A stretch of 32,000 bases of DNA, from contig NC_014833.1 of assembly GCF_000179635.2 (NCBI RefSeq), forward strand, positions 3,600,001-3,632,000. The letters run 5' to 3'. The notes beneath the pieces are model-generated. The model searched no databases. It saw only the letters and a list, made by a program, of their open reading frames with translations, and had not been told where the DNA came from. The translations under genes were made by a program, and so were the position numbers. How positions within the stretch are numbered: the first letter of the stretch is position 1; each line of letters starts with the position of its first letter. Below, piece after piece: positions 5,294 through 32,000 of this stretch. This stretch comes from Ruminococcus albus 7 = DSM 20455. GTDB lineage: Bacteria; Bacillota; Clostridia; Oscillospirales; Ruminococcaceae.

Positions 5294-5323
5294 AAAAAAA
5301 GACAGCCGACAAATACAGCTGTC
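5294..5323 (-). terminator. Rho-independent terminator after the 111-aa ORF
   Basis: On the minus strand, GACAGC-N11-GCTGTC is followed by T7 (plus-strand A7 at 5294-5300). Confidence 0.6.
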
Positions 5324-5353
5324 CTTATTACTTATTTAGCTAATACAAGTCCG

Positions 5354-5689: not shown

Positions 5690-5693
5690 AGAT

Positions 5694-6704: not shown

Positions 6705-6986
6705 AGATGTCTCCCCCTTTCAACATTCATATAATTCCATATTAATCATAACACATTATGAATAATTTTGCAACAAAAAAAACAATTTAACCCTAAACAA
6801 AAGCGTAAATCGTTTTTTGTTGGAAATACCCAAAATTCGCCCAATATATTCAAAAGGCATGATACAAGAAAATATCATGTCCCTTTATATTTTAAATATT
6901 TAATTCAAATATAACGTAGCTTTCTTTTCTTGATTTATTCAAGTAAGCAAAAGTTGTCTATTATGCATATTTCAAACAAATACTAT

Positions 6987-7014
6987 TGATTTTTCTGATA
7001 TAATATGCTATAAT
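6987..7014 (+). promoter_or_regulatory. SigA-type promoter with extended -10
   Basis: TTGATT (6987-6992), 16-nt spacer, TGcTATAAT (7006-7014), upstream of the 7053/7062 ORF. Confidence 0.5.
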
Positions 7015-7052
7015 ATATATAATTAAAGACAAATAACAATTGTTTTTAGGAG

Positions 7053-7292
7053 ATGAAGTATATGATGACTTTTTGGGTACTATTTGTTAATGATTTTTCT
7101 AAGAATGAGCGCTATACAAAAGTATACACAGCTATGATGGAAGCATATAATGAAATGGAGAGAATTAACCCCAGCGGCAGCAACCCTAACATGTTAACTA
7201 CGGTATCAAGACATAGTTTTAGAAAGAGGACAAAAGACTTTGAAAAGATGAATAATGAGTATTTCAAACAGCATGGCAAATATGCTTTTTAA
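7053..7292 (+). CDS. Hypothetical small protein (start more likely ATG 7062)
   Basis: AGGAG at 7048-7052 abuts ATG 7053, so the in-frame ATG at 7062 has better spacing. Promoter upstream and terminator downstream. Confidence 0.45.
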   Translation: MKYMMTFWVLFVNDFSKNERYTKVYTAMMEAYNEMERINPSGSNPNMLTTVSRHSFRKRTKDFEKMNNEYFKQHGKYAF

Positions 7293-7348
7293 AACACGAT
7301 ATTAATGATTTAATTACTGACGTCATAAGTTAATAAAGTAAAATAAGT

Positions 7349-7384
7349 AATCCCTTTACCTAATTGGCAAAGGGATTATTTGTT
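7349..7384 (+). terminator. Rho-independent terminator
   Basis: AATCCCTTT (7349-7357) pairs with AAAGGGATT (7369-7377), followed by ATTATTTGTT. Confidence 0.55.
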
Positions 7385-7386
7385 AT

Positions 7387-7494
7387 CTATTCGTCTTCTT
7401 CATACCCACTACATTCATGCTTATGTTCACAAAATTCGCATTCACATAAATCACTATAATTTCCTGTTTGCCAACAGATTTCATTATAGTTCAT
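7387..7494 (-). CDS. Possible 35-aa Cys-rich peptide (MNYNEICWQTGNYSDLCECEFCEHKHECSGYEEDE)
   Basis: My own translation of the minus strand. AGGTGA RBS about 5 nt upstream of the ATG. Below the ORF-track size cutoff. Confidence 0.3.
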   Translation of the reverse strand: MNYNEICWQTGNYSDLCECEFCEHKHECSGYEEDE

Positions 7495-7699
7495 AATATT
7501 CACCTTCTTCTATCTTCCATTTTAGGAAGAATAATACTTAAAGAAAAATTTTTTTCATCATGTGTTGTTTACTATATTTATCTAAAGCGTCTGATAATTT
7601 TTGTATTATAAACTAAATGTTATCAAGTGTATGGTTGTTTAATTTTATTGTTATTTTTGAATTGTGAATATTATTTTCTCTACTCATTATGTTATATTA

Positions 7700-7734
7700 A
7701 AATTCCTCGTGAGAAAAGTTATTTTCTCACGAGG
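7700..7734 (-). terminator. Terminator immediately 3' of the tRNA-Trp fragment
   Basis: Perfect 13-bp stem CCTCGTGAGAAAA (7705-7717) / TTTTCTCACGAGG (7722-7734) with a 4-nt loop. On the minus strand it is followed by AATTTTAAT. Confidence 0.65.
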
Positions 7735-7738
7735 ATAG

Positions 7739-7783
7739 CAGGGGCACCAAGGATCGAACTCGGGACACGCGGTTTTGGAGACT
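7739..7783 (-). pseudogene. Truncated tRNA-Trp(CCA): 3' half only; putative att site of the integrated element
   Basis: The minus strand reads GTCTCCAAAACCGCGTGTCCCGAGTTCGATCCTTGGTGCCCCTGC. This gives the anticodon loop CTCCAAA, a T-arm CCGAG-TTCGATC-CTTGG and the 3' acceptor strand TGCCCCT plus G. The sequence 5' of it (TTATTTAA...) cannot form the D-arm or the 5' acceptor strand. Confidence 0.75.
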
Positions 7784-7929
7784 TAAATAACTTGTAATGA
7801 GTTATAAACACCTGATTTATTAGTACCTAACAACTTCTCCATGAAATCAATACATTATACCATACTAAATTTAATTAGTCAACATCACATTTAGTGTGGC
7901 TAAAGACACATTTATAACAACGATAAAAG

Positions 7930-7962
7930 ATAGCGTTTGACAGAAGTCAGGCGCTATTTTTT
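7930..7962 (+). terminator. Hairpin plus T6 at the element edge
   Basis: ATAGCGTTTGAC (7930-7941) pairs with GTCAGGCGCTAT (7946-7957) as 12 bp including two G-U pairs, loop AGAA, then TTTTTT. Confidence 0.45.
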
Positions 7963-8050
7963 ATGGCAGCGGCAGGGTCGCTCCCTGCGGGCAGTGCTTA
8001 GTGTTTTTCTCACTGCCCTTCCCGCTGTCAATAGATTGAAAAACACTAAG
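7963..8050. promoter_or_regulatory. Structured GC-rich region upstream of parA (candidate operator/centromere)
   Basis: Three pairings: CAGGG-TCGCT-CCCTG (7973-7987); GGGCAGTG (7989-7996) with CACTGCCC (8011-8018); and a perfect 12-bp inverted repeat CTTAGTGTTTTT (7997-8008) with AAAAACACTAAG (8039-8050). Confidence 0.35.
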
Positions 8051-8085
8051 ATTAAAATCCGCAACAGCGGTGAAAGGAAAAAACC

Positions 8086-8883
8086 ATGAAAAACACAAAA
8101 ATAATTGCAGTAGCAAATCAGAAAGGCGGCGTGGGCAAAACCACTACTACAATCAATGTAGGTGCAGCACTTGCTCTTACGGGCAAAAAGGTCCTGCTAA
8201 TTGACTTGGACACTCAGGAATCCCTTTCAAATTTCCTCGGGATCTACAATGCAGAGAACAATATAGGTAAAGCGCTCTACAAAACAGTTAACCGCGAAAC
8301 TATTGACCTTGCAGATTACATTGTCACAAACGAGGTCAACAGAGTTGACATAATCCCGGCAGAACTGAACACAATGCAGCGTATCGCCATAGACCTTGTA
8401 TCAGTCAGAAGCAAAGAAACAGTTTTTCGCAGATTGATAAATCAGAACAGTGAACTTCTTAGCAGATACGACTACATCCTGCTTGACTGCCCACCGTCCC
8501 TTAATGTTATATTGGATAACGCACTTACGGCAAGCCGTTATGTGCTTATCCCCTGTCAGGCTCACCCTCTGAGCTATCCCCCGCTGCCTAATCTCCTATT
8601 ACAGATAAATGAGATTCAAGCAGAACTGAATGAAAACATAGAAATCATCGGAATTGTGCCAACAATGGTTGACAGGAGCAACAACAGCAAAACAACGGTC
8701 GAAATGCTCCGCGGTAATTACTCTGACATTGTTTTTGAAAGCGAGATAGAACGTATGGCTGTTGCCGCCAACTCTGCACTCACTGAAAAGGCAGTTGTTC
8801 TGTCAAACGCTAAGGACAACCGCGTATCACGTGAATACAAGGCTCTCACTGATGAGCTTGTAAGTCGTATCGAGGGGGTGTAA
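8086..8883 (+). CDS. parA: ParA/Soj-family partition ATPase
   Basis: Deviant Walker A KIIAVANQKGGVGKTTT, followed by LIDLDTQ and ILLDCPPSL. Confidence 0.9.
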   Translation: MKNTKIIAVANQKGGVGKTTTTINVGAALALTGKKVLLIDLDTQESLSNFLGIYNAENNIGKALYKTVNRETIDLADYIVTNEVNRVDIIPAELNTMQRIAIDLVSVRSKETVFRRLINQNSELLSRYDYILLDCPPSLNVILDNALTASRYVLIPCQAHPLSYPPLPNLLLQINEIQAELNENIEIIGIVPTMVDRSNNSKTTVEMLRGNYSDIVFESEIERMAVAANSALTEKAVVLSNAKDNRVSREYKALTDELVSRIEGV

Positions 8884-8886
8884 GGC

Positions 8887-9807
8887 ATGAAATTTGATAA
8901 AGTAAGTGAAACATTCTCCGAGAGAAAGGAAAAAGGAAGTATAAAAGAAAGCCTTATCTCAGCTGAGGAAGTTCTGAACGAGATAACCGAGATAGCTATG
9001 CACAAGCTTGATATGTACACAGACGAGGATGGAAATCAGCCTTTTGACATAGACGATGAAAAAGTTGAAGCCCTGAGCGAAAGTATAAAAGAGAATGGGC
9101 AGCTGGAACCTATCATCGTTCGTAAAAAGAATGGTAGGTATCAGATACTCAGCGGTCATCATAGATACCTCGCTCTGAAGTCGATAACTGCAATGTATGC
9201 ACTTGCAACTGTGGTCGATGTATCCGACCTTAAAGCCTACATGATAGTGTGCGAAAGCAACATCCATCATGCGGCTCCCCCGCCCTCTAAGCTTTGTAAG
9301 ATTTTCCTGCGGTATCGTGCCGCAGGAAAAGAAGAGAAGATAACCGCCGATCAGCTTGCTAAGATGTTCGGCATCAGCCGTGAACAGATGTATCGCATAA
9401 TTGCTATGGACACACTTACAACACCGATGCAGGAACTGGTCGATGCAGGACTTATCTCAACCAACAGCATAAAACAGCTGAGAACACTTACCCCTGACCA
9501 ACAGGATACGCTTGCTGACTATGTTTATAATGAGGACAAAAAGCTTAACAAGGCGAAATGTGACAAGGTCATAGATCTGTTTATCACTAATGCAAATGCA
9601 ACGGTAGAAGATATTGACGAGTGTCTGAACAGTGACGATAAAGAAAAGGAACCTGCCAACAACTACAATGCTATGAAGAAAATGAGCAAAGAACAGCTGG
9701 CTGACTATATTTTTGCAAACCTTGCAAGCTTTACTTCGTCAGAAAAAATCCTTTCTTTTCTCTGTGATAATATTGGAAAGGAGAAGCAAAATCTTGAAAA
9801 ACATTGA
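8887..9807 (+). CDS. parB: ParB-like N-terminal domain protein
   Basis: Sits 3 nt after parA. It has EPIIVRKKNGRYQILSGHHRYLA (ParB/Srx fold). The arginine patch reads GHHRYLA instead of GERRxRA. A plausible HTH lies around QLAKMFGISREQMYRII. Confidence 0.75.
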   Translation: MKFDKVSETFSERKEKGSIKESLISAEEVLNEITEIAMHKLDMYTDEDGNQPFDIDDEKVEALSESIKENGQLEPIIVRKKNGRYQILSGHHRYLALKSITAMYALATVVDVSDLKAYMIVCESNIHHAAPPPSKLCKIFLRYRAAGKEEKITADQLAKMFGISREQMYRIIAMDTLTTPMQELVDAGLISTNSIKQLRTLTPDQQDTLADYVYNEDKKLNKAKCDKVIDLFITNANATVEDIDECLNSDDKEKEPANNYNAMKKMSKEQLADYIFANLASFTSSEKILSFLCDNIGKEKQNLEKH

Positions 9808-10177
9808 ACTGTGCAGAAATTGTTACTATGGCAGAGTGATCGTCGATGACAATGGACAAGTATTTGGACGGTCTTGTGAATTTCCTATATCAGTATTTAT
9901 TGAAAATATAGATAAAGTAAAAAACGAAACAGACGATGAATGTATGTTTTTCAGCGGCGGCTGTTCCGGAGTGATAGGATTTACAAATATAGATAGGAAT
10001 GAGACCGATCACATAGAACAGACAGAAGTCCTTGACGAACAGCCTGAACAAGACAATTTAGAAAAAGCACCTGATATTATTCATAAGAACATTTGGACTA
10101 ACATCTTAATGAATATTGTTATGTTTCTCATTGGTGTTGGTGTAGCTATTATATATACTATTATAATAAGGGACTGA
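9794..10177 (+). CDS. Small membrane-anchored protein (TTG start preferred over the track start at 9713)
   Basis: GGAAAGGAGAAG RBS lies 7-8 nt before the in-frame TTG 9794. This avoids a 95-nt overlap with parB. C-terminal TM: ILMNIVMFLIGVGVAIIYTIII. Confidence 0.5.
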   Translation: MKNIELCRNCYYGRVIVDDNGQVFGRSCEFPISVFIENIDKVKNETDDECMFFSGGCSGVIGFTNIDRNETDHIEQTEVLDEQPEQDNLEKAPDIIHKNIWTNILMNIVMFLIGVGVAIIYTIIIRD

Positions 10178-10182
10178 TAAAG

Positions 10183-10198
10183 TGTGTCTATAGACACA
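10183..10198. repeat. Palindrome TGTGTCTATAGACACA, copy 1
   Basis: Perfect 16-bp palindrome, 5 nt after stop 10175-10177. Confidence 0.9.
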
Positions 10199-10219
10199 GT
10201 TTATCAAGTGGTGCTGGGA

Positions 10220-10420
10220 ATGGAAATACGAATAATCGGAACCAAAGAAGAACTGGAGCAGGCGGCAATTCAGATAGCTGCCTGCTACAAAATAAAATAC
10301 AAAAGTCGAATCTATCTCTGCCGTGATAAAAAGGCTTACCGGCTGTATATAAAAACCGAGGATAACCACATAGAGGAAGAAAAGCAGCTGGAAGGTCAGA
10401 TGTCTTTTGATGAGGTGTGA
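10220..10420 (+). CDS. Hypothetical small protein (ATG 10220; the track start GTG 10184 lies inside the palindrome)
   Basis: ORF in the operon orientation. No motif recognised. Confidence 0.4.
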   Translation: MEIRIIGTKEELEQAAIQIAACYKIKYKSRIYLCRDKKAYRLYIKTEDNHIEEEKQLEGQMSFDEV

Positions 10421-10438
10421 TTTCATGAGGTACAATAT

Positions 10439-10672
10439 ATGAAAATGGGAAAGCTTGGATATAATAGCGACAATAGCAGATACGGCATTCTTGTCTGCGA
10501 TTTATGGGAGTTAGATGGCTTTCGCTGTGGCGATACATTAGAGGTGTGGGACAGAGATACAGAGCAGTGGATACCGACACGCATGGAAATGCGTTGGAAA
10601 AACGAATGGTATCTCGTCGGCACGCCATACAGCGGTACGGCTTTAGAGGGTTTGAAAGTAAGAGTGAAATAA
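10439..10672 (+). CDS. Hypothetical small protein (77 aa)
   Basis: GAGGT RBS 8 nt upstream. Compact ORF, no motif recognised. Confidence 0.55.
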   Translation: MKMGKLGYNSDNSRYGILVCDLWELDGFRCGDTLEVWDRDTEQWIPTRMEMRWKNEWYLVGTPYSGTALEGLKVRVK

Positions 10673-10711
10673 TCTGAGCTTGTGCTGTAAATTTAACAAG
10701 GAGATTATAAG

Positions 10712-11599
10712 ATGAAAGTACATAATCACGATTATCCCGACCACAAAACCGCAAGGCAGTGGGCAAAACAAGGCTTTTTACCAATAGATGGGGCAGAAGG
10801 AATAGAGTTATGGGCAAATCAATTTTGTCAGAATAAATACATCTATTACGGACCCGATGAAGTATCCAAGGCTACACCCGATCAGCTTTCTAACTTTTTC
10901 CGCTTTGAACGAGAAAACCGAAATCAAAGAGAAAAAGAAAAAAGGAAGCACAGAAACGCTGAACTAATTGCAGAAAACAAAGAGCTTAGAAAAGAGAATA
11001 ATCTACTTGAATTATCCTTATGCGAACTTGAAAGGACTGCAATTAGACTTATGCGAAACGTTGACATATCACCCGAAAAATCAGCGGATACTATTATAAT
11101 AGATACTGAAACAACAGGACTCAGTGAATTAGACGATGAATTGCTGCAAGTATCTATCATCGATGATGCAGGAAATGTTCTTTACAACAGCTATCTTCGC
11201 CCCTTATACCATACTTCATGGAAAGAAGCGGAATGTGTAAATAACATTACTCCGCGAATGGTAGCGGAGGCACCGACCATCTATGATGAAATGCCAAAGA
11301 TAAATGCTATCATAAAAGCTGCCAAAAAAATCATAGGCTTTAATACCGGGTTTGATGAAAACTTCCTTTATTTCTCCGGTGGAATTTCATGGATGAATAA
11401 AGAGGTCGTTGATGTAATGACGATGTTCGCGCCGATCTACGGTGAATGGAGCGAACAATACGACGATTATAAATGGCAAAACCTTATTAAAGCTGCCGAT
11501 TACTATGATTATGATTGGAGCAGCCGACCAGGTGAAGCACACAACAGTCTTGCAGACTGCTATGCTACCCTATATGTGTACAATAAGATCATTGAATAA
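10712..11599 (+). CDS. DEDDh 3'-5' exonuclease (DnaQ/epsilon-like) with an unknown N-terminal domain and coiled coil
   Basis: Exo I IIIDTETTG, Exo II GFNTGFDENFL, Exo III EAHNSLADCYATLYVY. AAGGAG RBS. The N-terminal ~125 aa are unassigned and include a basic heptad stretch, RENRNQREKEKRKHRNAELIAENKELRKEN. Confidence 0.8.
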   Translation: MKVHNHDYPDHKTARQWAKQGFLPIDGAEGIELWANQFCQNKYIYYGPDEVSKATPDQLSNFFRFERENRNQREKEKRKHRNAELIAENKELRKENNLLELSLCELERTAIRLMRNVDISPEKSADTIIIDTETTGLSELDDELLQVSIIDDAGNVLYNSYLRPLYHTSWKEAECVNNITPRMVAEAPTIYDEMPKINAIIKAAKKIIGFNTGFDENFLYFSGGISWMNKEVVDVMTMFAPIYGEWSEQYDDYKWQNLIKAADYYDYDWSSRPGEAHNSLADCYATLYVYNKIIE

Positions 11600-11603
11600 A
11601 AAG

Positions 11604-11619
11604 TGTGTCTATAGACACA
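11604..11619. repeat. Palindrome TGTGTCTATAGACACA, copy 2
   Basis: Perfect copy, 4 nt after stop 11597-11599 and 8 nt upstream of a consensus -35. Confidence 0.9.
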
Positions 11620-11627
11620 TTTTATTC

Positions 11628-11656
11628 TTGACATAAGAGAGCATTTAGTCTATAAT
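11628..11656 (+). promoter_or_regulatory. Consensus SigA promoter TTGACA-17-TATAAT
   Basis: TTGACA 11628-11633, 17-nt spacer, TATAAT 11651-11656, then AGAGAGG RBS and ATG 11667. Confidence 0.7.
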
Positions 11657-11666
11657 AGAGAGGTAA

Positions 11667-11858
11667 ATGATGAAGAACTTATATGATAAAAGTAAGTATA
11701 TCAACAAAAAAACACTCGATCCAAAAGCAGAGATAATATTAAAAACAAAGGATAAACTTGATGAATATCGAAAAAAAACAATTAAAACAGATACAAGCTC
11801 TGATTTCAAAGACAAGCTGTATCGGATCTGTTGTACAATTATATCTAAATATAAATAA
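11667..11858 (+). CDS. Small ORF (63 aa) overlapping the next gene in another frame; may be the true 5' end of that gene
   Basis: Best promoter and RBS context in the region. It overlaps the 11758 ORF by 101 nt, and an A8 run at 11771-11778 lies in the overlap. Confidence 0.35.
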   Translation: MMKNLYDKSKYINKKTLDPKAEIILKTKDKLDEYRKKTIKTDTSSDFKDKLYRICCTIISKYK

Positions 11859-12411
11859 AGATTTAAGATTAAGGTTAAAACCTAAATGTTTATCTAATTG
11901 TTGCCAATGCTGCAATGATCTTTTTTTTATATCACCTCCAGAATTCTACACAATTCTCTTTTACCTGAAAGAATACATGGGTGAAGACTATATTTTAGCA
12001 AAAATACAGTATTCTCAAGCAATGTTGAATAAACTGAAAAATGCTTGTCCATCGTATGATGATTATTCAAGTTCTTATTTATCATTTGATAAAGACCTAT
12101 ATATTTCTTTACATGACACCTTAGAAAACCATAAAATTCGCTGCCCTTTTTTAAATTCCAAAGGTCATTGTGACATTTATCCTGTACGACCTTTAATCTG
12201 TAGGTTATATGGTTGGAAAATACAGTGTAAAAATATAGGTAAAACAATGAAATATAACAAGTATGAAAAATACAATGAATTTCAAAAACTAAATGGTTAT
12301 AATGGTAAGTTTGAAAAAGAGTATATCATAATTGATTATCTTGCTGAACTTGCTCCCCTACTTTTATTTAATGAAGAAGAGTTCAAGAAAAAATATCAAG
12401 AATCCATATAA
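11758..12411 (+). CDS. YkgJ-type (CxxCxxCC) Zn/Fe cysteine-cluster protein
   Basis: CLSNCCQCCN near the N-terminus, and CPFLNSKGHCDIYPVRPLICRLYG, the pattern I recognise from the YkgJ/UPF0153 family. Confidence 0.65.
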   Translation: MMNIEKKQLKQIQALISKTSCIGSVVQLYLNINKDLRLRLKPKCLSNCCQCCNDLFFISPPEFYTILFYLKEYMGEDYILAKIQYSQAMLNKLKNACPSYDDYSSSYLSFDKDLYISLHDTLENHKIRCPFLNSKGHCDIYPVRPLICRLYGWKIQCKNIGKTMKYNKYEKYNEFQKLNGYNGKFEKEYIIIDYLAELAPLLLFNEEEFKKKYQESI

Positions 12412-12460
12412 GCAAATCTGATAAAGTAGTTTATTTAAATACAGTTTATAATACACGTAA

Positions 12461-12491
12461 AGCAGCCAATTAATAATGGCTGTTTTTTTTT
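12461..12491 (+). terminator. Rho-independent terminator
   Basis: CAGCCA (12463-12468) pairs with TGGCTG (12477-12482), followed by T9. Confidence 0.7.
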
Positions 12492-12498
12492 GTAAATA

Positions 12499-12825
12499 AT
12501 GATACAAATGAAAGGTAAGATGAAAATGAAAGAAAATATTATTGTAGGATTTAGAGGACCCAGTAAAAAAAAATCTGTAAGATACAATCAGAAGCTAATC
12601 ACTTCCTCCATAATGGTAATCACATCACCATATGAAGAGACAGTAAGAAAATGTATAGCAGAGTATAATATTAAGGATTTTGATTTTAATTCAGCTACAT
12701 ACGGGTTATATTCAAACATAAGAATAGAACTAAATAACGAAACCGGCGAGTGTAAGATTCAGGTGTTTGATGAAAATACAGGTGAACTGAAAGCTTTATA
12801 CAAGGGAGTAACTAAAAATGAATAA
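12499..12825 (+). CDS. Hypothetical protein (start possibly ATG 12526)
   Basis: ORF with AAAGGT at 12511-12516. No motif recognised. Confidence 0.5.
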   Translation: MIQMKGKMKMKENIIVGFRGPSKKKSVRYNQKLITSSIMVITSPYEETVRKCIAEYNIKDFDFNSATYGLYSNIRIELNNETGECKIQVFDENTGELKALYKGVTKNE

Positions 12826-12867
12826 CGAACAGCAGATAGGATGGAGCGCAAAACGGGGGTTGATTTA

Positions 12868-13044
12868 ATGAAAGATCTATTAGATATTTTCTCAATAGAT
12901 TTTATTGCTATTGGTATTGCTGGTTTTATTTATTTCTTTTTTATCATGAGTTTTATCAACATACAAAGAAGATTTCCAAAGTCAAAAACTAATAATGAAA
13001 AGACACAAGAAAGGAATGATGGAAATGAACCAAAAAAAGAATAA
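12868..13044 (+). CDS. Small single-TM protein (58 aa)
   Basis: GGGGGT RBS 7 nt before ATG 12868, in frame with the track ORF 12841. TM: FIAIGIAGFIYFFFIMSFI. Confidence 0.45.
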   Translation: MKDLLDIFSIDFIAIGIAGFIYFFFIMSFINIQRRFPKSKTNNEKTQERNDGNEPKKE

Positions 13045-13258
13045 CCGCTTTGAGTACATGATAATCACAATTTGCGGAGTATTTATAATAACCTATGCTA
13101 TGATGGTTGACAAGATCATGAATTTCCCGGAAGTCATGTCAAGCACTCCGTTGAAGATACTATTAACCGTTTTTTCTTGTATTGTGTTTATCATCACTGT
13201 TTGCCTTACAGTGAGATTATTCATGCTCATTCATAAGGATTATGTAGAAAGGAGATAG
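12995..13258 (+). CDS. Small two-TM protein (start possibly 13016-13025)
   Basis: Hydrophobic segments MIITICGVFIITYAMMV and ILLTVFSCIVFIITVCLTV. Overlaps the previous ORF. Confidence 0.45.
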   Translation: MKRHKKGMMEMNQKKNNRFEYMIITICGVFIITYAMMVDKIMNFPEVMSSTPLKILLTVFSCIVFIITVCLTVRLFMLIHKDYVERR

Positions 13259-23101: not shown

Positions 23102-23145
23102 AAATGAGAAAAAGGCAAATTAAGGTAATCGAAAGGAGTATAAAT

Positions 23146-23967: not shown

Positions 23968-24375
23968 TTAGATCCTATCAAGTAACTCCGACGGTTTGAG
24001 CGCAGGAATTTTACTATCCTTAAAATCACGAATGTTTCTGGTTACAATAAAATCCGCATTGATCCTACTTGCCTGACACATCTGTAAAGCATCTTCATAA
24101 TCAGAAGTGAGCATTTCTGCCGCTGAATTAAGGTCGGATGATTTAAGATCAACGACTTCAAAAATCATAAGTATCTGCTTTATTAGCTGCTCCGTTTTCT
24201 TAGGATCAAGTTCCTTGCGCAGGATGTACACAATATTCGGTACAGTGAGTGCAGAAACATATCCATCGATTTTGTTTACCTCGCAGTATTTCCAAATCTT
24301 TGATGAATTTTCTACAAAATCCGGTCGATTGCAGAGAACGTCAAGGATCACATTTGTATCAATCAAGATCTTCAT
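23968..24375 (-). CDS. vapC: PIN-domain toxin (VapC-type ribonuclease)
   Basis: MKILIDTNVILDVL opens with the first PIN acidic residue. 135 aa. Overlaps the upstream antitoxin gene by 17 nt. Confidence 0.85.
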   Translation of the reverse strand: MKILIDTNVILDVLCNRPDFVENSSKIWKYCEVNKIDGYVSALTVPNIVYILRKELDPKKTEQLIKQILMIFEVVDLKSSDLNSAAEMLTSDYEDALQMCQASRINADFIVTRNIRDFKDSKIPALKPSELLDRI

Positions 24376-24592
24376 GTTTCTTTAACCTTTCCGCGCGAAT
24401 TTCTTTTTCATCATAATCATTTTTTAGAACTCCTGTAAGCGAGTCCGTTAGAAAAGAAACCGTAGACTTATGTGAAACCAGTCTGGCAACTTCTTTTCCG
24501 TTTTTGAGTATGATTATCTCGCCGCCTTGCTGAACTTCTTGTAGATACTGACCGAAGTTATTTTGAAAATCAGTTGCTGTTGCAGTAATCAT
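24359..24592 (-). CDS. Phd/YefM-family antitoxin
   Basis: 77 aa. The N-terminus ITATATDFQNNFGQYLQEVQQGGEIIILKNGKEVARLVS fits the Phd/YefM pattern. GGAGGTG RBS. Confidence 0.8.
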   Translation of the reverse strand: MITATATDFQNNFGQYLQEVQQGGEIIILKNGKEVARLVSHKSTVSFLTDSLTGVLKNDYDEKEIRAERLKKHEDLD

Positions 24593-24803: not shown

Positions 24804-25607
24804 TTGAGAATCCAAGTATCCGCGTCCAGGTATACCCCGCCTGCGGGAGATACCAACAACACAAGAGGTTTTGCATCAGTCAAGTTCCAGAACGACAATG
24901 GTGATGAGTATATGCTCGAACGTATAACTATCAGAGAGTCAGCCAACGGAATGTACGTCAGCCTACCGACCGTAGCACGTAATGCCAAGGTCAACGGTTC
25001 TCCGGTGTATGATTCAAACGGTAATCCCAAAAAAGAATTTACAGAGGTCCTGCACCCTGTAAACAACGCTGCACGTACTGAATTGTGTAACGCCATCATG
25101 GAGCGCTGGAGGGCGAATGACAGAGAGTATGCCGAGTTCAATATCCTTGGTAATACTCAGTTTGAGATGAGCAAGATCAACGTCAACCTGCACAGCGATC
25201 AGGCAAAACACCTTGTCGGAATCGGCTCGGTAACATTCGGTGATGCTTTTAAACTTGACAGCATCATGGTCAAAGAGGGCAGCAAGGGCGAATTCCTTGA
25301 TTTGCCCAGCTATCGCACAAAAAAATATGATCCCGAAACAAAGCAGATAGTGATAGGCGCAGACGGACAGCCTGAGATAGACTACCGTGATTTGTTCCAC
25401 CCGAACACCCGAGAAGCCTATGATAAGCTGACCAATGCAGTCCTGGATAGTCTTCACGCTAAACAACAGGCACAGGATAATAGCTATGCTGCATACGAAC
25501 AGCAGCAGAACAACTATAATCAGCAGAGTGCTGCCGCTGCCATTCCCGACTACGATCCATTCAGTGGTTTTGAAGATATAACACCGCAGTACGGACGCGG
25601 AAGATAA
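24804..25607 (+). CDS. Tandem SpoVG-like domain protein with a Gln/Asn-rich tail (TTG start)
   Basis: AAAGGAGG lies 8 nt before TTG 24804. Two segments match the SpoVG pattern: ...RGFASVKF...ITIRESANGMYVSLP...EFTEVLHPVN..AR.EL..AI and ...GIGSVTFGDAFKLDSIMVKEGSKGEFLDLPS...YRDLFHPNTREAYDKLTNAVL. Confidence 0.6.
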   Translation: MRIQVSASRYTPPAGDTNNTRGFASVKFQNDNGDEYMLERITIRESANGMYVSLPTVARNAKVNGSPVYDSNGNPKKEFTEVLHPVNNAARTELCNAIMERWRANDREYAEFNILGNTQFEMSKINVNLHSDQAKHLVGIGSVTFGDAFKLDSIMVKEGSKGEFLDLPSYRTKKYDPETKQIVIGADGQPEIDYRDLFHPNTREAYDKLTNAVLDSLHAKQQAQDNSYAAYEQQQNNYNQQSAAAAIPDYDPFSGFEDITPQYGRGR

Positions 25608-25728
25608 TTTCTTCTCTCTCGGAGAATAAAAACTCAAAACAATAAGCACAAACTTTAATCGTTACTCCCTAGGGAAACAAAGCTATAATCACTCCTACGG
25701 GAGATTTTGTTGCGAAAGGATATAAATA

Positions 25729-28700
25729 ATGAGATTAAATAATTCAATAGAAAACTGGCAGAATTATCTCAGCTTTTCATCAAATCTTTATTCTTATGGT
25801 TATGCGGATATCATGAAAGTGTATTCCGCAGAACCTACCGCAACTGCCGTTGCCACACTGGAAGAATGGAACAGAATGGGCAGATTTATAAATCCCAAAG
25901 CTAAAGGTTTCATTTTCAGTGACGGACATATACGCTATGACATTAAGGATACAAACGGCGCGTCCGTAAGAAAATGGCAGTTTACAAGTGGTCACATTCC
26001 CTTTTATTATGACCATTTCAACGCCATGAACATAACAGATAATGTTATGCTCGATAATGGAAATGACTTCTCAGTAAACATCTGTGATTTTCTCTGCGAA
26101 ATGATGTCAAAAGACAAGTCCCTTTCCGGTGTTGTTAATGAGAATGTAAGGGAAATTGCGGCTTTATCTACTACGTATGTTATCTGCGAAAGACTTGGTA
26201 TTGATAAAAATGAAACATATCTCGACTTATCTGACATTACAAAACTGTCAGATGAAGAAGTCAACCTTACAGCTACAATTACCGCGATATATGCAAGGTC
26301 AATGCTTAAAGCTGCTCAAAGGACAGTATCTTCTGTAACAAAGGAACAGATAGAAGAACGCAGCAGAAATGTCATGTTTACAGCCGAAGAACTTAGCGAA
26401 TTTGAAGATATTACCGATGCAGTATATGACGAGGAAATCTCTGAGGAAACTACTGTTGAAACGGCAGAAGATGAAGAAAAGAAGTATACTGTACCCGAAA
26501 CACTTGAAAATGTCACAGCCGACAATAACAATGATGATATTATTCAGCAAAATAAAAGTGTGGTTACTGTTCAGCCCGTATCTGAAGTATCAGATAGCGG
26601 CTTAACTGCCGAAAAACAGCAAGAAATACTTGAAACTGCACTTATGATAGAAAACAGCTCTATCAATAAAGAACGTATCAACGCTTTGTTTTCGGGTAAC
26701 ATCGGTGTTAATGCTCTGACCTCTTATGTAAGGACTAATTACAAAGGTAAAAGCTATAACTCGACCAATGATGATATTATCAGCGCATATCTTGCAAGAA
26801 ATGATTGTTTCGTGGTAAGATACAATATTGATGGAAATGCGGGAAATCTGTCATTTGATTGGCAGACCGTAACAAACACCATAGATCAACTTATCCGTGA
26901 GGATAGATTTATAACACCCAAAGAAAAAGACGATACAGCGGAAGAAAAAACCTCGCTTACGCTGCATAAAGTCGGTGACTTTTGGGAAATGTACGATAAT
27001 GATGCCCGGGCTGCTTCTGAAGCACTCGGGCTTTATCTTTCAAGGAAAGGAAAAGTCGCTATGTGCGGCTTTCCTGATAAAGAGAAAGATAACTACACTC
27101 AAAGACTGCGTGATGCAGGATTTATCATTATAAATGATAATATCCCGGAGAATAAAAAAGAAACTCTCCTTGACAGCATTACCATTAAGTTCGGAACAGA
27201 AAACGATCCCGAACTGACAACAGAAAGCAAGCTGCTTGACGATCTCATAACTAAATACAGAAATGAACATAACGGTAACGATATGAGTTTCGCGCTTGCA
27301 AATGCCGTAATCGAGTATCTTGATGAAAAGCAGCATACTGAGCGTACCGATAAAGACAACAAAGTTGGCTGGTACAAGAAAACATGGTTTACAGTTACCG
27401 CAACAATAAGCGGCGAACAGTTTTCCTATGAGGCAAGATATGATATAGGTGACGGTAAAGGAACAGGCGGCGGCTCTATAATCGACCATATTGAGCAGTT
27501 TCAGACCGAGATAATCCGTCAGAAACCATATCCATACAATACAGAAGATAGTCAAAACACAGCCAAAAATGCAGTTGACATTTTAATACCGTATCTGAAA
27601 GCTAATACCGAGCTGACAGAAGAAGAAAAGCTGATACTGTGGGAACTGAAAAGAGATAATCCGATCAAGGGTATACAGCCTGTGTTGGATCCTAAACTAC
27701 TCACTCACTATATACCGTCCGGACTTCCGCTGATAGCTGATAACAATGATGTTTTCTTTGTATTACGGCATGATCGTTTCTATCATCATAACAGACAGGA
27801 AATTGCAGATTTCTTTGAAACTCATGCAAATGCCAAAGAACGTGAGCAGTTTATCCGTAAAGCTATAAACGAAGAATATTCACAGCTTTCAACAGATGAA
27901 GAAAAGACCATGGGCTACAAAACATTCGAGGATGGTCTTTGCATCTGGGAAGGTAATTATATGTCCCACACAGCCGAGAATTTCTATTCTTGGGAAGATG
28001 TTGTAACATTATTCGCTGATATGATGCAACGCGGTGAATATCTTGACACTCAGATAATTGATACACCTGAAACGGTTGAAGATAACGTACAGGAAGATGC
28101 TGCTGCACAGCTTTCATTTTTCGGTGAACCCGAAACAATGGCTGCCACAACAAAGCCAAAAAGCCGAAAGGATACATCTGAAATTGATACACGTCCAATG
28201 TTCAATGTAACCGATGATATGGTCAACTATGTTCTTAGATGCGGCAGTGCCACAAAAGGAACACTGGAGCGTATTATTGCGCAGTACCAAAAAGGCAAGT
28301 CCGATGCGGAAAACGGCGAGTTTCTCAGCCGTGAGTTTAATAGCAGTTTTCGTTCTGAGGATAATGGTCGAGGGTATGTATATTCAGAGAGTGAACTGAT
28401 CTCATCTTGGTGGGACAGAGAAAGATTGTGGGTAGGTGCAGGCGAAAGCGCACTTAACGCAAAAATGTACAATGTTGCACCATGGAATTTAATTGCTGCA
28501 CGAGTAGGTGAGCTGATTGAAAAAGGTCAGTTCTGTTCACAGGCTGTTATAGATCGTGCAGCTGAAATGGAAATAAAGGATATCGCAGACAAATTATGGT
28601 ATCTGCATCAGGATACCGACAATGAAGAATATCAGTATTTTATCCCGGATGAGATGTTTAAAGGCGGTTTTCCTGACAGTACCGAGAGAATAAAAAATGA

Positions 28701-31700
28701 TCTTATGGACAGCGATAAACTGCAAGACTACATTTCAGGGATGACAAAGTTTGTAAATGATTATGAGCAGAACAGAGATATACTCCGTTGGCATTTTCAT
28801 AGACCGCGTGAAACCTTAGAACGGCTGAAAGACCTGACTATCGAGCGCAAACAATTCAAAGCTGACCCTGATTTTGAGTTTATACCATCGTTCTTTATTT
28901 CCGAAGATGAAAAAAATCGTGTAATACAGCATTTTAACTATCAGACAAAATTCAAGATCCGAGATTATTTTGACGATGAAGAACGCACCACAAAAGATAA
29001 GGTTAAATTCCTGAACAACTTATATTCAGACGGCGGATTTGGCGATAGGGATACAAATTTTTATTACGGTAAAAAGGGCTATACCATAGTTCACTCCCCT
29101 GCTTACGATGAGTGGCAAGGCTGCACAGCCACAATGAACTGGAAAAACGTTGTTGTAAGAATAGACAGCCTTATCAAAATAGACAAATTTATCTCTGAGA
29201 AAGATAAAAAGGAACAGGAAAAGCTCATTCAGCAGAAGCTTTTTGAAGCTAAAAACAAGGAAGAACTTGAAAAGGCAAAAGAGAATATCCGAAACTTTTG
29301 GGAAAGCGAGTACGGTGGTGGCAGTGATGATTTTACCGATCTTCACAAAGTCGGCATAGCATACACTACCGTTGATCTGGACGATAGTCACTATATGGAA
29401 CTTCAGGTATATGCTGACCTTATGGACAATGCTCTGCGCTATTACATCGACAATGAACTTTACAAAGAAGAAAAATACGATGATCTTCATTCGTTCAATG
29501 AGGACGCACTTTCGGTTCTTGATTTTCAAGAACTCTATGACCAGTTCGATATCAGCAAACTGGAAGAAAAATATAATGCTTCAAAACACGAAAAAGAGTC
29601 TTTATCAGCGGAAATATCTGTTAATGCATCAGATAATGAGCTGACTGTAATGCAGTATGGTGCAGCACAGCGAAACCTCAAAGCATTTAATGAACTGTTC
29701 CCTGAGTTCATGCAGAAAGAATACGCTTATATGCGAATGGAAGCCGGGGATGCTTATGAACCGTTAAGCCTTGAATGGCTTTCGGAAGATACTTTCTCCA
29801 TAATGCATTTTTATGACCAGAACGGCGATTTGATGTATGACCCCGATGTTGTTATTAAGGTCGATGCTACTTCTGCGCAGGCAATAAGCTTTGAAAACTC
29901 AAGTCTTGGTATCTATGAAAGCTATACCAGCGGTTTATTTGACCAGGACGATTGCAATAACTTCGTAGAAAAATGGCTTGCGAACATCTCACATCAGGGT
30001 TACAAACCTGTGCGCATAAAAAATTACGATGATGAGATCGTACTTGATACAACATACTCTGAGTTGATGCACGAAAATAAAGCTGAACCTGATATTGACA
30101 GCGATATAATAGGCATTGACAAATTAAAGCGAAATGGCAGTGTAGTCTACTGGAGTTACTTCAATGAAGATGGTAACGATGGTAACGGACAGTTCATCGA
30201 AATGACCATAACCGAATTTGACATCAATGAAGCTGTAAAGGTAATGAGTGCTGCGGGTGGTCGTACCAAATTAGGCTATCAAACATTCATCAACTACATT
30301 GAAGATCACAGTTCTCAGATAGTCGTTGATAAGGGAACAGAAGATTTTGAGGATGTAAAAGCTGAATTTCTGAATGGCGAATACGATATTCAGGTCACAG
30401 CTGATAATGACAGCCGTGAACAGCTGATAGCTGATTTCATTGATAACACCGACCATACCAGAACACTTGTTCCCGATAACATCGGATACGCTATCGGCAT
30501 TTACAGCGGAGAAGCATTTGACAAAACAACTATCGACGAAAATACAAAGAAATACAAGGTAGTTGCTCAGATCGACCGTAAAAACCGCATAGCTGTCAAG
30601 TGGGATGAACCCGATCTCCCTGAGAGCGTAAAGGATGCCATATCAAAGGTAGCACTTACCTATGACATCGTGGAAGATGATACTCAAAAAGCAGAGGATG
30701 CTGCATTGGACTTTCTCGGCTTAGATGAAGTCGATGATGAGTACACCATACTACGTAATAAAAATGATGCGGTTGAGAATGATACAGTTCAGCTTTCCAT
30801 CTTCGGAACACCCGTGTTCACAGAGGAAAATACTCCCGTTGTGCCTGTAAAAGTCGGTGCTGAAATAGAGTATCAGGACAGGACCTATACAGTAACGGCT
30901 ATCAAGCCCGAACACAATGAAATAGATCTTCTCGATCAGCATACCGGATGGTATCCTATAACTCGCGTAGAACCACTTGACGTATTTATATCTGAATACG
31001 ATGCTAAAACAGCAAAATCTGTAGTTGAAGCAGCTGCGGTAGTCAACGGACCTCAGAACTATACTATTACAGATGATGAGTTAGGAGTTGGTACACCGAA
31101 AGAAAAATACAAGGCAAACATTGCTGCTATTAAACTGCTGAAACAGATAGAAGCCGAGGACAGGCAGGCAACAGTCGAGGAACAGGAAGTGCTTGCACAT
31201 TATGTCGGTTGGGGCGGACTTTCGGGAGCTTTTGAAGCAACTAACAGTTCATGGGAAAATGAATACTCAGAACTGAAAAATCTGCTTACACCGGAGGAAT
31301 ACAATGCAGCACTCAATTCCGTGGTAAATGCACACTTTACAAGCCCGGTAATTATCAGAAAGATGTATACCGCACTGGAAAACTTCGGCTTTAAGGGCGG
31401 CAAGGTGCTGGAACCGTCCTGCGGTATCGGTAATTTCTTAGGCTGTGCTCCGACCGACAAAGCGGCTAACTATCAGTTCACGGGAGTTGAGATAGACAGT
31501 ATCACGGGACGTATAGCAAAACAGCTTTATCCGCAGGCAAAAATACAAGTTACTGGCTTTCAGAATGCTGATGTTAAAGACAATTACTTCGATGTAGTAA
31601 TAGGTAATGTACCGTTTGCAAACTACAGCGTGACGGACCGTAAGTATAACAAGTCAAATCACCTGATACATGACTATTTCATACTGAAATCCCTCGATCT

Positions 31701-32000
31701 GACACGCGCAGGCGGTGTAGTTGCAGTAATTACTTCATCTGGTACAATGGATAAGGTGTCCGCAAAGGTACGAACAGAGATCAGCAACAAAGCAAAGCTG
31801 ATTGGTGCTATAAGGCTGCCTGACACAGCATTTGAAAAAAATGCCGGAACAAATGCAGTCGCAGATATCCTTTTCCTGCAAAAGCGTTCAGAACCAAATG
31901 CAGACTATGAAGACTGGCTTGAAGTTGACCGCGAAACATATTACGGTCTGCCTATAAATCAGTATTTCATAGATCACCCCGAAATGGTCTGCGGAACAGT
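25729..32000 (+). CDS. Giant multidomain (polyvalent-type) protein, 5' part; includes a MutS-domain-I-like module and an N6-adenine DNA methyltransferase; continues beyond the window
   Basis: I translated this frame codon by codon from ATG 25729 (AAAGGA RBS) to 32000 and found no stop. It is missing from the ORF track because it has no stop in the window. Recognised motifs: VGDFWEMYDNDARAASEALGLYLSRKG..MCGFP (about 26953-27135), methyltransferase motif I VLEPSCGIGNF (31405-31437) and motif IV GNVPFA (31603-31620). Confidence 0.85.
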   Translation, partial: MRLNNSIENWQNYLSFSSNLYSYGYADIMKVYSAEPTATAVATLEEWNRMGRFINPKAKGFIFSDGHIRYDIKDTNGASVRKWQFTSGHIPFYYDHFNAMNITDNVMLDNGNDFSVNICDFLCEMMSKDKSLSGVVNENVREIAALSTTYVICERLGIDKNETYLDLSDITKLSDEEVNLTATITAIYARSMLKAAQRTVSSVTKEQIEERSRNVMFTAEELSEFEDITDAVYDEEISEETTVETAEDEEKKYTVPETLENVTADNNNDDIIQQNKSVVTVQPVSEVSDSGLTAEKQQEILETALMIENSSINKERINALFSGNIGVNALTSYVRTNYKGKSYNSTNDDIISAYLARNDCFVVRYNIDGNAGNLSFDWQTVTNTIDQLIREDRFITPKEKDDTAEEKTSLTLHKVGDFWEMYDNDARAASEALGLYLSRKGKVAMCGFPDKEKDNYTQRLRDAGFIIINDNIPENKKETLLDSITIKFGTENDPELTTESKLLDDLITKYRNEHNGNDMSFALANAVIEYLDEKQHTERTDKDNKVGWYKKTWFTVTATISGEQFSYEARYDIGDGKGTGGGSIIDHIEQFQTEIIRQKPYPYNTEDSQNTAKNAVDILIPYLKANTELTEEEKLILWELKRDNPIKGIQPVLDPKLLTHYIPSGLPLIADNNDVFFVLRHDRFYHHNRQEIADFFETHANAKEREQFIRKAINEEYSQLSTDEEKTMGYKTFEDGLCIWEGNYMSHTAENFYSWEDVVTLFADMMQRGEYLDTQIIDTPETVEDNVQEDAAAQLSFFGEPETMAATTKPKSRKDTSEIDTRPMFNVTDDMVNYVLRCGSATKGTLERIIAQYQKGKSDAENGEFLSREFNSSFRSEDNGRGYVYSESELISSWWDRERLWVGAGESALNAKMYNVAPWNLIAARVGELIEKGQFCSQAVIDRAAEMEIKDIADKLWYLHQDTDNEEYQYFIPDEMFKGGFPDSTERIKNDLMDSDKLQDYISGMTKFVNDYEQNRDILRWHFHRPRETLERLKDLTIERKQFKADPDFEFIPSFFISEDEKNRVIQHFNYQTKFKIRDYFDDEERTTKDKVKFLNNLYSDGGFGDRDTNFYYGKKGYTIVHSPAYDEWQGCTATMNWKNVVVRIDSLIKIDKFISEKDKKEQEKLIQQKLFEAKNKEELEKAKENIRNFWESEYGGGSDDFTDLHKVGIAYTTVDLDDSHYMELQVYADLMDNALRYYIDNELYKEEKYDDLHSFNEDALSVLDFQELYDQFDISKLEEKYNASKHEKESLSAEISVNASDNELTVMQYGAAQRNLKAFNELFPEFMQKEYAYMRMEAGDAYEPLSLEWLSEDTFSIMHFYDQNGDLMYDPDVVIKVDATSAQAISFENSSLGIYESYTSGLFDQDDCNNFVEKWLANISHQGYKPVRIKNYDDEIVLDTTYSELMHENKAEPDIDSDIIGIDKLKRNGSVVYWSYFNEDGNDGNGQFIEMTITEFDINEAVKVMSAAGGRTKLGYQTFINYIEDHSSQIVVDKGTEDFEDVKAEFLNGEYDIQVTADNDSREQLIADFIDNTDHTRTLVPDNIGYAIGIYSGEAFDKTTIDENTKKYKVVAQIDRKNRIAVKWDEPDLPESVKDAISKVALTYDIVEDDTQKAEDAALDFLGLDEVDDEYTILRNKNDAVENDTVQLSIFGTPVFTEENTPVVPVKVGAEIEYQDRTYTVTAIKPEHNEIDLLDQHTGWYPITRVEPLDVFISEYDAKTAKSVVEAAAVVNGPQNYTITDDELGVGTPKEKYKANIAAIKLLKQIEAEDRQATVEEQEVLAHYVGWGGLSGAFEATNSSWENEYSELKNLLTPEEYNAALNSVVNAHFTSPVIIRKMYTALENFGFKGGKVLEPSCGIGNFLGCAPTDKAANYQFTGVEIDSITGRIAKQLYPQAKIQVTGFQNADVKDNYFDVVIGNVPFANYSVTDRKYNKSNHLIHDYFILKSLDLTRAGGVVAVITSSGTMDKVSAKVRTEISNKAKLIGAIRLPDTAFEKNAGTNAVADILFLQKRSEPNADYEDWLEVDRETYYGLPINQYFIDHPEMVCGT

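Follow-up and report, generated by a model that had tools for sequence, protein, structure and literature searches.

Introduction

Polyvalent proteins of conjugative elements, in which 2–15 domains of disparate activity are joined in one polypeptide, were described as a class by Iyer, Burroughs, Anand, de Souza and Aravind (2017, J Bacteriol, PMC5512222). Here, we analyse a stretch of 32,000 nucleotides from Ruminococcus albus 7 = DSM 20455 (NC_014833.1, positions 3,600,001 to 3,632,000 of the forward strand; hereafter the window, meaning this whole stretch). It ends within a giant open reading frame (ORF) that starts at position 25729 and encodes a protein which resembles this class.

[quoted passage not shown] ArdC-N is found at the N-terminus of 93% of the conjugative members and is accompanied by a metallopeptidase domain (MPTase) in about 70% of polyvalent proteins, while the genes adjoin those of type IV secretion systems (T4SS) and often toxin–antitoxin pairs (PMC5512222). 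DarB itself acts in cis to shield incoming DNA from type I restriction and is delivered together with the DNA (PMC5512222). More recently, darB-type genes and orphan methylases have been located in anti-defence islands of conjugative elements, including those of Gram-positive bacteria (PMC11541004), and proteins with the methylase–helicase dyad have been reported from integrative and conjugative elements (ICEs) of Faecalibacterium (PMC12084326).

Our analysis indicates that positions 25729–32000 are probably the 5′ two-thirds of a single gene for a polyvalent protein of about 3,390 amino acids (aa), carried by an integrated conjugative element of an R. albus-like Clostridium. We give this reading a probability of roughly three in four, a figure that covers the gene, the element and the proposed anti-restriction mechanism jointly.

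Results

A single gene that extends beyond the window

25714..25720, plus strand: Shine-Dalgarno sequence GAAAGGA, 8 nt upstream of ATG 25729, read from the sequence
25729..32000, plus strand: giant ORF, codons 1–2090, cut by the window end; full length inferred as about 3,387–3,388 aa

Translation of frame 1 from ATG 25729 to the window end yields 2,090 codons without any stop, exactly as described in an initial annotation that was made from the sequence alone. The nearest in-frame stop on the 5′ side is TAA 25723–25725, and ATG 25729 is the first start codon after it as well as the only plausible one with a ribosome binding site. Each of the remaining five frames carries 50–232 stops across the same interval, and, given the local base composition, a run of 2,090 codons free of stops would arise with a probability of about 1.4e-63. 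The initial annotation had also remarked that the frame is absent from the accompanying ORF list. Indeed, all ORFs listed within 25729–32000 are antisense or in another frame. The list leaves out any ORF that extends past one of the ends of the source, and the absence of the giant ORF is therefore a matter of bookkeeping and not of biology.

A search of 5.8 billion proteins retrieved three proteins of 3,387–3,388 aa that are 94–96% identical to the window copy and collinear with it across all 2,090 residues. They come from one isolate genome (R. albus AR67) and two metagenome contigs. The end of the frame, which the initial annotation suggested to look for by extending the contig, can thus be read from the AR67 contig NZ_FOKQ01000055, where the 96%-identical ORF (3060..13223) closes at 3,387 aa. 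The R. albus match has already been deposited as “DUF6908 domain-containing protein” or “adenine-specific DNA methylase, N12 class”; as a correction to the initial annotation, the gene is not an unknown one. More than 800 distant relatives, mostly of 2,400–3,600 aa, share the same overall order. The protein belongs to a known and widespread class, and a nearly identical one is already public under a generic name. Furthermore, a plasmid search revealed relatives of the methylase part on more than 2,000 plasmids, many of them conjugative, none of which carries the N-terminal 1,760 residues as a whole.

The pairwise ratio of nonsynonymous to synonymous substitution rates (dN/dS) was 0.137 against the AR67 copy and 0.133 against the metagenome copy, the latter being a single comparison since the two metagenome contigs encode one identical protein. 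Segment by segment, dN/dS ranged from 0.05 to 0.40 throughout, including the unassigned, linker-flanked and clade-specific parts, which shows the entire frame to be coding and subject to purifying selection. These data bear on the least probable of the alternatives that we considered, namely that the frame is artefactual or a fusion in decay, either because adjacent genes were joined by an assembly or sequencing error or because it is the remnant of a pseudogene and does not function as one protein. Such an origin could be suspected from modules that exist elsewhere as separate small genes, and from an acidic linker and a block at aa 1471–1770 that have almost no relatives (see below). However, besides the dN/dS values, the uninterrupted frame of 3,387–3,388 codons recurs in an isolate genome and two independent metagenome assemblies at 4–6% amino-acid divergence, the same overall order is shared by hundreds of homologues of 2,400–3,600 aa, and there is a single plausible start codon. 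Frameshifts or stops that split the frame, and homologues encoded as separate genes, had been named in the initial annotation as observations that would argue against one gene; neither occurs in this clade, where the full-length homologues are collinear.

A methylase–helicase dyad homologous to DarB

31066..31323, plus strand: LPD36-like helical domain, about aa 1780–1865, with GWGG (aa 1827) and FTSP, N-terminal to the methylase
31324..32000, plus strand: core of an N6-adenine DNA methyltransferase (gamma-class, EcoKI/TaqI/Eco57I-like), starting at aa 1866 and truncated where the window ends

The C-terminal part of the window copy begins with the domain that Iyer et al. defined as LPD36 (PMC5512222). 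Its GxG[GAS] motif, here GWGG, is present in all homologues, and the (Y/F)TSP motif, which caps the helix ahead of the methylase core, in 111 of 119. The N6-adenine methylase that the initial annotation placed at the window end is supported by the Pfam family Eco57I at aa 1943–2028 (31.7 bits; cutoff 25.3), and TaqI structures were the only methylase structures matched by sequence. Motif I (LEPSCGIGNF, residue 1894, nt 31408–31437) and motif IV (NVPF, residue 1960, nt 31606–31617) lie where they had been noted. The EPxxGxG of motif I is conserved family-wide, and motif IV reads GNVPF in 117 of 119 homologues and GNIPF in the other two. NVPF is therefore the normal form of NPP(Y/F) in this family, with Val for the first Pro, and not a degenerate site, which is a second correction to the initial annotation. 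The catalytic motifs of this predicted methylase are intact throughout the family.

An SNF2 or DEAD helicase module had been expected downstream, and it was found beyond the window end in the collinear homologues of 94–96% identity. There, the respective cutoffs are exceeded by ResIII (residues 2563–2752, 40.3 bits), SNF2-rel_dom (2581–2908, 49.9 bits) and Helicase_C (3000–3081, 36.6 bits). In the 96%-identical homologue P0001 the helicase motifs are intact (GAGKT at 2589, DEAH at 2744 and QRNGRGER, of the form QxxGRxxR, at 3073), and the best matches of this part in the Protein Data Bank (PDB) are remodellers of the ISWI type.

The initial annotation had cited P1 DarB as an example of such giant proteins, and the relationship turned out to be one of homology rather than of analogy alone. 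The profile phrog_10089, “DarB-like antirestriction”, matches residues 1768–3378 with E=0 and 1,427.8 bits. A tblastn search of the dyad against 50,697 phage genomes recovered annotated DarB-like phage genes with 32–37% identity over 92–99% of the dyad as well as darB of the P1-like phage P7 (26.7% identity over 46%, E=5e-20). Judged by sequence, LPD36, the N6-adenine methylase and the SNF2 helicase together form a dyad that is homologous to phage DarB.

The same two enzymatic domain types also occur in host defence systems such as DISARM, BREX, Dpd-like and Type ISP/III-like restriction–modification systems, so that the protein might instead be a component of such a system and restrict foreign DNA. 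PADLOC and NCBIfam profiles of DrmD, DrmA, BrxHI and DpdE gave local matches with E values from 1e-12 to 1e-3. These matches, however, cover a generic Helicase_C lobe of about 90 residues out of profiles of 650–1,040 positions and reach 15–44 bits, where the NCBIfam cutoffs are 500–1,100. The DarB-like family, in contrast, is matched over 1,600 residues with E=0, and the flanking genes are conjugation genes. Partner genes for a nuclease, PLD, DUF1998, PglZ or BrxC are absent from the window and the homologous contigs; no restriction endonuclease or other defence partner gene was found in the window, where the only match of the neighbouring genes in the defence library was a generic DEDDh exonuclease. 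As the matches are confined to the helicase lobe and partner genes are lacking, we rejected an identity with DISARM, BREX or Dpd, and a role in host defence is very unlikely.

An N-terminal header that may be related to ArdC-N

25729..26433, plus strand: N-terminal header, aa 1–235; ArdC-N-like (Rad4 beta-hairpin-domain-like) core of helix and beta-hairpin at aa 1–100, followed by a helical extension
26434..26619, plus strand: acidic low-complexity linker, aa 236–297, 26% Asp+Glu, covered by almost no homologue

The header is present at the N-terminus of about 95 of 117 homologues. An AlphaFold2 (AF2) model of it, based on 12 diverse sequences, reached a mean predicted local distance difference test score (pLDDT) of 80 and a predicted template modelling score (pTM) of 0.77. 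The top three Foldseek hits of this model in the PDB were to ArdC of plasmid R388 (probability 0.98–0.84), followed by Rad4/XPC beta-hairpin domains. The Pfam family ArdcN was matched by three of 12 family members (best E=0.0046), the window copy not being among them, and it was the only family matched by more than one member. ArdC-N binds single-stranded DNA, and ArdC protects the transferred DNA in the recipient. A comparison of the header profile with PDB sequences gave chance-level matches only, and tblastn of the header against plasmids returned one weak, unannotated match that did not help with the ArdC-N assignment. A relationship of ArdC-N to the Rad4/XPC beta-hairpin domains, as seen in the order of our structural matches, has been proposed by Iyer et al. 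(PMC5512222). Overall, the modelled header may resemble ArdC-N: the lines of evidence agree, each falling below usual significance, and the resemblance is marginal.

Modules between the header and the dyad

26620..26928, plus strand: repeat U1, about aa 298–400; U4 profile matches aa 312–424 (independent E value, i-E, 2.2e-10), U3 profile aa 298–397 (4e-6)
26944..27123, plus strand: MutS domain I-like module, aa 406–465; Pfam MutS_I, 34.6 bits (cutoff 20.6)
27271..27504, plus strand: LPD25, aa 515–592; Pfam, 50.6 bits (cutoff 27)
27751..28098, plus strand: repeat U2, aa 675–790; U4 profile i-E 1.6e-10, hhalign probability U2–U4 96.1%, AF2 HHH-beta4-H fold with pLDDT of about 90
28204..28545, plus strand: repeat U3, aa 826–939; hhalign probability U3–U4 99.6%, E=1.8e-24, and AF2 model
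28549..28884, plus strand: helical “GGFPDST” module between U3 and U4, aa 941–1052, named after its alignment consensus; AF2 helical bundle, pLDDT >90
28891..29250, plus strand: repeat U4, aa 1055–1174, with a motif of the type FL..(E)YG.GG; covered by 112 of 117 homologues
29266..29538, plus strand: module of about 90 aa, aa 1180–1270, also fused to DUF3848 in small standalone proteins
29680..30003, plus strand: DUF6908, aa 1318–1425; Pfam, 67.7 bits (cutoff 27)
30139..31038, plus strand: clade-specific block, aa 1471–1770, covered only by homologues P0001–P0004 (P0004 partly); dN/dS 0.11

The initial annotation regarded the region upstream of the methylase as composed of mostly unassignable modules. 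This holds insofar as no Pfam model covers about 1,400 of the first 1,880 residues, but several of the modules can now be described. In all, the frame contains at least eight distinct module types (ArdC-N-like, MutS_I, LPD25, the four-fold repeat, the helical module, DUF6908, and LPD36 with the methylase, with SNF2 following in the full-length homologues).

The MutS-I module retains the sequence GDFWE (aa 416–420, nt 26974–26988) and with it Phe-X-Glu, the wedge motif of MutS. The LPD25 module, which by homology spans about aa 475–650, also occurs alone in proteins of about 200–240 aa. An exhaustive HMMER scan of a profile of residues 236–1435 against 1.84 billion representatives revealed 1,639 related clusters, dominated by the LPD25 region and by a Pfam-less block from about aa 665/825 to 1165, both of which are also found in standalone proteins of 200–650 aa. 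The position of a module varies among homologues; MutS-I, for example, lies at residue 403 of the giant protein, but at residue 1545 of P0005 and 832 of P0010. Such reshuffling, together with the occurrence of modules as standalone genes, is a hallmark of polyvalent proteins.

The Pfam-less block revealed an internal repeat, a unit of about 105 aa of which the protein has four copies, at about aa 298–400, 675–790, 826–939 and 1055–1174. A BLASTP self-comparison showed no internal repeats, and the copies became visible only with profiles built from standalone relatives, after the block had been aligned with 27 short relatives. The U4 profile matches the four copies with E values of 2e-10, 1.6e-10, 8e-12 and 8e-33, and U2 and U3 align with each other in hhalign with a probability of 95.5%. 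The GGFPDST module served as a control and is unrelated to the repeat unit (hhalign probability 0.4%). With one to four copies each, the unit was found in 118 of 120 family members and 128 of 148 representatives, and U4 is the most conserved non-catalytic part of the family. In the AF2 model of U2–U4 (pLDDT 87), each unit consists of three helices, an antiparallel sheet of four strands and a helix at the C-terminus. The repeat-block profile matched no PDB sequence and no Pfam family covers the block, while a search of a viral library recovered the same fold in single-domain, uncharacterised phage proteins of about 100 aa (best match: probability 1.00, template modelling score (TM) 0.74, root mean square deviation 2.1 Å over 98 columns). 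The repeat unit is newly resolved here and has neither a solved structural relative nor, in a comparison that covered the LPDs listed in Pfam, a Pfam model.

For the 510-aa model of the repeat block, Foldseek also proposed a likeness to sliding clamps and PUR repeats in the PDB. With probabilities of at most 0.16 and TM of at most 0.12, we discarded these hits as noise from the repeated alpha/beta architecture.

Downstream of the repeats, aa 1180–1270 are 43% identical (E=1e-14) to the C-terminal half of P0121, a protein that carries DUF3848 at its residues 7–98. This single match, obtained in a search with aa 1040–1300 alone, showed that the module of about 90 aa travels with DUF3848. The clade-specific block at aa 1471–1770 found no match on plasmids. 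That this block and the repeat unit constitute an undescribed family of anti-defence effector or decoy domains is a speculative and rather improbable proposal. If it were true, the copies would each have a target of their own in the recipient, a defence component or a DNA structure, to bind or neutralise, and the protein would represent a delivered array of inhibitors, more than a methylase accompanied by DNA-binding accessories.

Genomic context

24804..25607, plus strand: SpoVG-domain gene, directly upstream of the giant gene in all related contigs
23968..24592, minus strand: PIN toxin (23968–24375, 135 aa; Pfam PIN_3, E=2e-21) and a Phd/YefM-like ORF of 77 aa (24359–24592), overlapping by 17 nt

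Housekeeping genes on the minus strand (folD, lgt, two M16 peptidases and a GGDEF protein) occupy positions 1–6704 of the window at 46% GC. They are followed by an AT-rich gap (6705–8085, 31% GC), beyond which element genes lie on the plus strand in the order ParA, ParB, DEDDh exonuclease, DUF3848 and DUF3849 proteins, a SpaA-repeat adhesin, the SpoVG gene and the giant gene, interrupted by the antisense PIN pair ahead of the SpoVG gene. Downstream of the giant gene, the near-identical contigs carry successive genes for a 148-aa protein, a DUF3991/Toprim_2 protein, a DUF8208/collagen-like protein, DUF5592, a VirB4-like ATPase (AAA_10, P-loop_TraG, DUF87) and a Big_2 protein. The Toprim/DUF3991, DUF5592 and VirB4-like genes are located 0–8 kb downstream in the contigs with 94–96% identity; the window stops before them. 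The VirB4-like ATPase and the Toprim/DUF3991 protein in the homologous contigs bear out the link to conjugative elements drawn in the initial annotation, and the locus is an integrated conjugative element of a kind common in Clostridia.

In its product of about 265 aa, the SpoVG-domain gene combines two SpoVG-like stretches with a tail rich in Gln and Asn. Its counterparts lie at 9085–9879 in contig L001, 2027–2821 in L002 and 2138–2938 in L003. This gene and the giant gene are probably parts of one transcription unit or module and, to judge from the synteny, a nucleic-acid-binding protein and the polyvalent protein may form a conserved functional pair. The PIN pair is a type II toxin–antitoxin system, antisense to the surrounding genes and 1.1 kb upstream of the giant gene; its antitoxin has a Phd/YefM-like N-terminus, and the antitoxin class was assigned by eye. 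At the position of the PIN pair, contigs L001 and L002 have an HTH gene and other small genes instead.

Several further observations concern the accessory region. The giant protein showed no paralogy with neighbouring ORFs of the window. DUF3848 (13599–14747, plus strand) and DUF3849 (15998–16660, plus strand) are standalone genes in the window and are both fused into the methylase-containing polyvalent protein P0063 elsewhere; the small accessory genes and the giant protein therefore share a pool of modules. On the plus strand at 18770–22516, a surface protein of 1,248 aa with at least seven SpaA/prealbumin-like Ig-fold repeats is probably a mating or host adhesin of the element. Its counterpart in L001 has 1,696 aa, so that the number of repeats varies among close relatives. 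Just past ParA/ParB, a protein of 295 aa (10712–11599, plus strand) carries a C-terminal DEDDh exonuclease domain (RNase T/DnaQ-like), while its N-terminal stretch of about 125 residues has no assignment. Five co-oriented plus-strand ORFs of 134–346 aa (14659–15291, 16789–17493, 17586–18626, 22697–23101 and 23104–23910) had no Pfam or PADLOC match and are uncharacterised accessory genes of the element.

In the AT-rich gap, the reverse complement of positions 7738–7782 (minus strand) reads as the 3′ half of tRNA-Trp(CCA), with the anticodon loop CTCCAAA, the T-arm CCGAG-TTCGATC-CTTGG and the acceptor strand TGCCCCTG. The fragment sits at the drop in GC content from 0.46 to 0.31, between the housekeeping genes and ParA/ParB, and is probably a displaced remnant of an att site at the left end of the integrated element. 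This boundary is unconfirmed: there were no tRNA or Rfam family calls in the window, with ARAGORN and Rfam silent on the fragment because it is truncated, the related loci contained no match to it, and the junction had no plasmid match. The same junction holds an ORF for a cysteine-rich peptide of 38 aa (7387–7503, minus strand; …CWQTGNYSDLCECEFCEHKHEC…), which may be a chance ORF or encode a small metal-binding or precursor peptide.

Discussion

A proposed role in anti-restriction

Our analysis places the giant protein of R. albus in the polyvalent class of conjugative elements and, building on the framework of Iyer et al. (2017) and on the precedents of P1 DarB and ArdC, a mechanism can be proposed. 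While the element is being transferred by conjugation, or shortly afterwards, the transferred single strand or junctions of single- and double-stranded DNA would be bound by the header and the MutS-I module. Once the complementary strand has been synthesised, the SNF2 motor would move the fused methylase along the duplex, so that the incoming element would be N6-adenine methylated in cis, in a fast and processive manner, ahead of restriction by the recipient. The protein may itself leave the donor through the type IV secretion system together with the DNA. The repeat units and the other unassigned modules would probably be scaffolds that bind DNA or proteins, or further effectors against host defence. 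As the motif of a zincin peptidase is absent, the protein probably acts as one polypeptide that does not cleave itself. By analogy, we thus infer anti-restriction methylation, possibly with delivery into the recipient.

Alternatively, the methylase–SNF2 protein might act for the resident cell or element in the donor and not be transferred, either as an orphan methylase and translocase in epigenetic regulation, replication or maintenance, or by excluding competitors. Nothing in our analysis shows export, and a T4SS substrate of such a size would be unusually large; the protein also has no processing peptidase. Moreover, ParA/ParB maintenance genes are part of the same element, and host-captured polyvalent proteins may target incoming elements (Iyer et al., PMC5512222). 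Against this stand the header with its marginal likeness to ArdC-N, a position-specific feature that the class ties to co-transfer, and DarB, the closest characterised homologue, which is delivered alongside the DNA and, once inside, acts in cis (PMC5512222). In addition, the gene lies between accessory genes and the T4SS module, as other conjugative polyvalent genes do. Since early expression in the recipient would give equal protection, this alternative differs from anti-restriction in the recipient mainly in location and timing, and we consider it unlikely, albeit the most serious of the competing explanations.

Several points weigh against anti-restriction by a conjugative polyvalent protein as the preferred reading. 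The ArdC-N assignment is marginal both in structure (Foldseek E=0.015, TM 0.36) and in sequence (Pfam hits in three of 12 members, E of 0.005 or weaker). The MPTase that usually accompanies ArdC-N is lacking, as HExxH is absent anywhere in the homologue of 3,387 aa and no peptidase family of Pfam was matched. A match to a true P1-type DarB extends over only 46% of the dyad at about 27% identity, and the helicase part of the window copy lies beyond the window, its presence being deduced from the collinear homologues. Neither a relaxase nor an oriT, a coupling protein or an integrase was seen in the window and the homologous contigs. Furthermore, methylation activity, target sequence, timing of expression and export by the T4SS are derived from analogy, and we know of no experiment on any member of the class from a conjugative element.

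Giants with the methylase–helicase dyad rank with the most frequent large genes that conjugative elements of gut Clostridia carry and are presumed to help these elements, including carriers of resistance genes, to cross restriction barriers between species. The class is therefore important for gene flow in gut bacteria, and the copy in the window would not surprise a specialist. New is the map of its modules (the header, a MutS-I with intact wedge motif, the four-fold repeat, the clade-specific block and the DarB-like dyad) rather than a new principle. This map could guide domain-by-domain work in R. albus, a cultivable rumen organism.

Comparison with known systems

By its sequence features, the giant protein fits the class of conjugative-element polyvalent proteins of Iyer et al. 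It shares with the architectures of Tn1549-like and related elements of Firmicutes the giant chain of many modules, a header (here only marginally ArdC-N-like) with MutS-I, LPD25, and LPD36 with methylase and SNF2, as well as the T4SS neighbourhood, the adjacent toxin–antitoxin pair and the occurrence of shuffled or standalone modules. In contrast to many members, it has no zincin metallopeptidase, which is a frequent but non-defining feature of the class. It also differs in its four units of about 105 aa and its clade-specific block of about 300 aa, both outside Pfam, which may correspond to LPDs that were never entered in Pfam, and in DUF6908, which was defined after that paper.

With DarB of phages P1 and P7, the protein has in common the homologous dyad of a methylase and an SF2/SNF2 helicase and the setting in a giant protein of a mobile element. 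Whereas P1 DarB is packaged into the phage head with the help of DarA/Hdf and injected, the protein described here is encoded on a conjugative element, and it has about 1,770 extra N-terminal residues (ArdC-N-like, MutS-I, LPD25, repeats and DUF6908). Identity with P1-type DarB is low and patchy; closer relatives (32–42%) are “DarB-like” proteins that come from N4-like and other phages as well as from fecal phage contigs. ArdC of the IncW plasmid R388/pSa (PDB 6I89, 6SNA) is the best structural match of aa 1–235, although this likeness is marginal in both sequence and fold. Moreover, ArdC is a protein of about 300 aa with a C-terminal metalloprotease, whereas the header described here leads into a helical region that is non-catalytic and lacks HExxH.

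DISARM (DrmD/DrmMI) and BREX (PglX/BrxHI) employ the same two enzymatic superfamilies in conflicts over self and non-self DNA. Their similarity to the giant protein is nevertheless limited to a generic helicase lobe, their partner genes are not found here, and the predicted role is the opposite one, namely counter-defence; in addition, the methylase and the helicase are here part of one chain with modules of mobile elements.

A further comparison is with the dyad proteins from ICEs of Faecalibacterium and other Clostridia (PMC12084326) and hundreds of homologues of 2,400–2,700 aa, which are annotated as “DEAD/DEAH box helicase family protein” or “N12 class adenine-specific DNA methylase”. They belong to the same family, with 46–59% identity in the LPD36–methylase region, and, like the giant protein, possess the header, repeat units and the roughly 90-aa module. 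Compared with them, the proteins of the R. albus clade are about 800 aa longer and are distinguished by LPD25, DUF6908, four instead of one to three repeats, and the clade-specific block.

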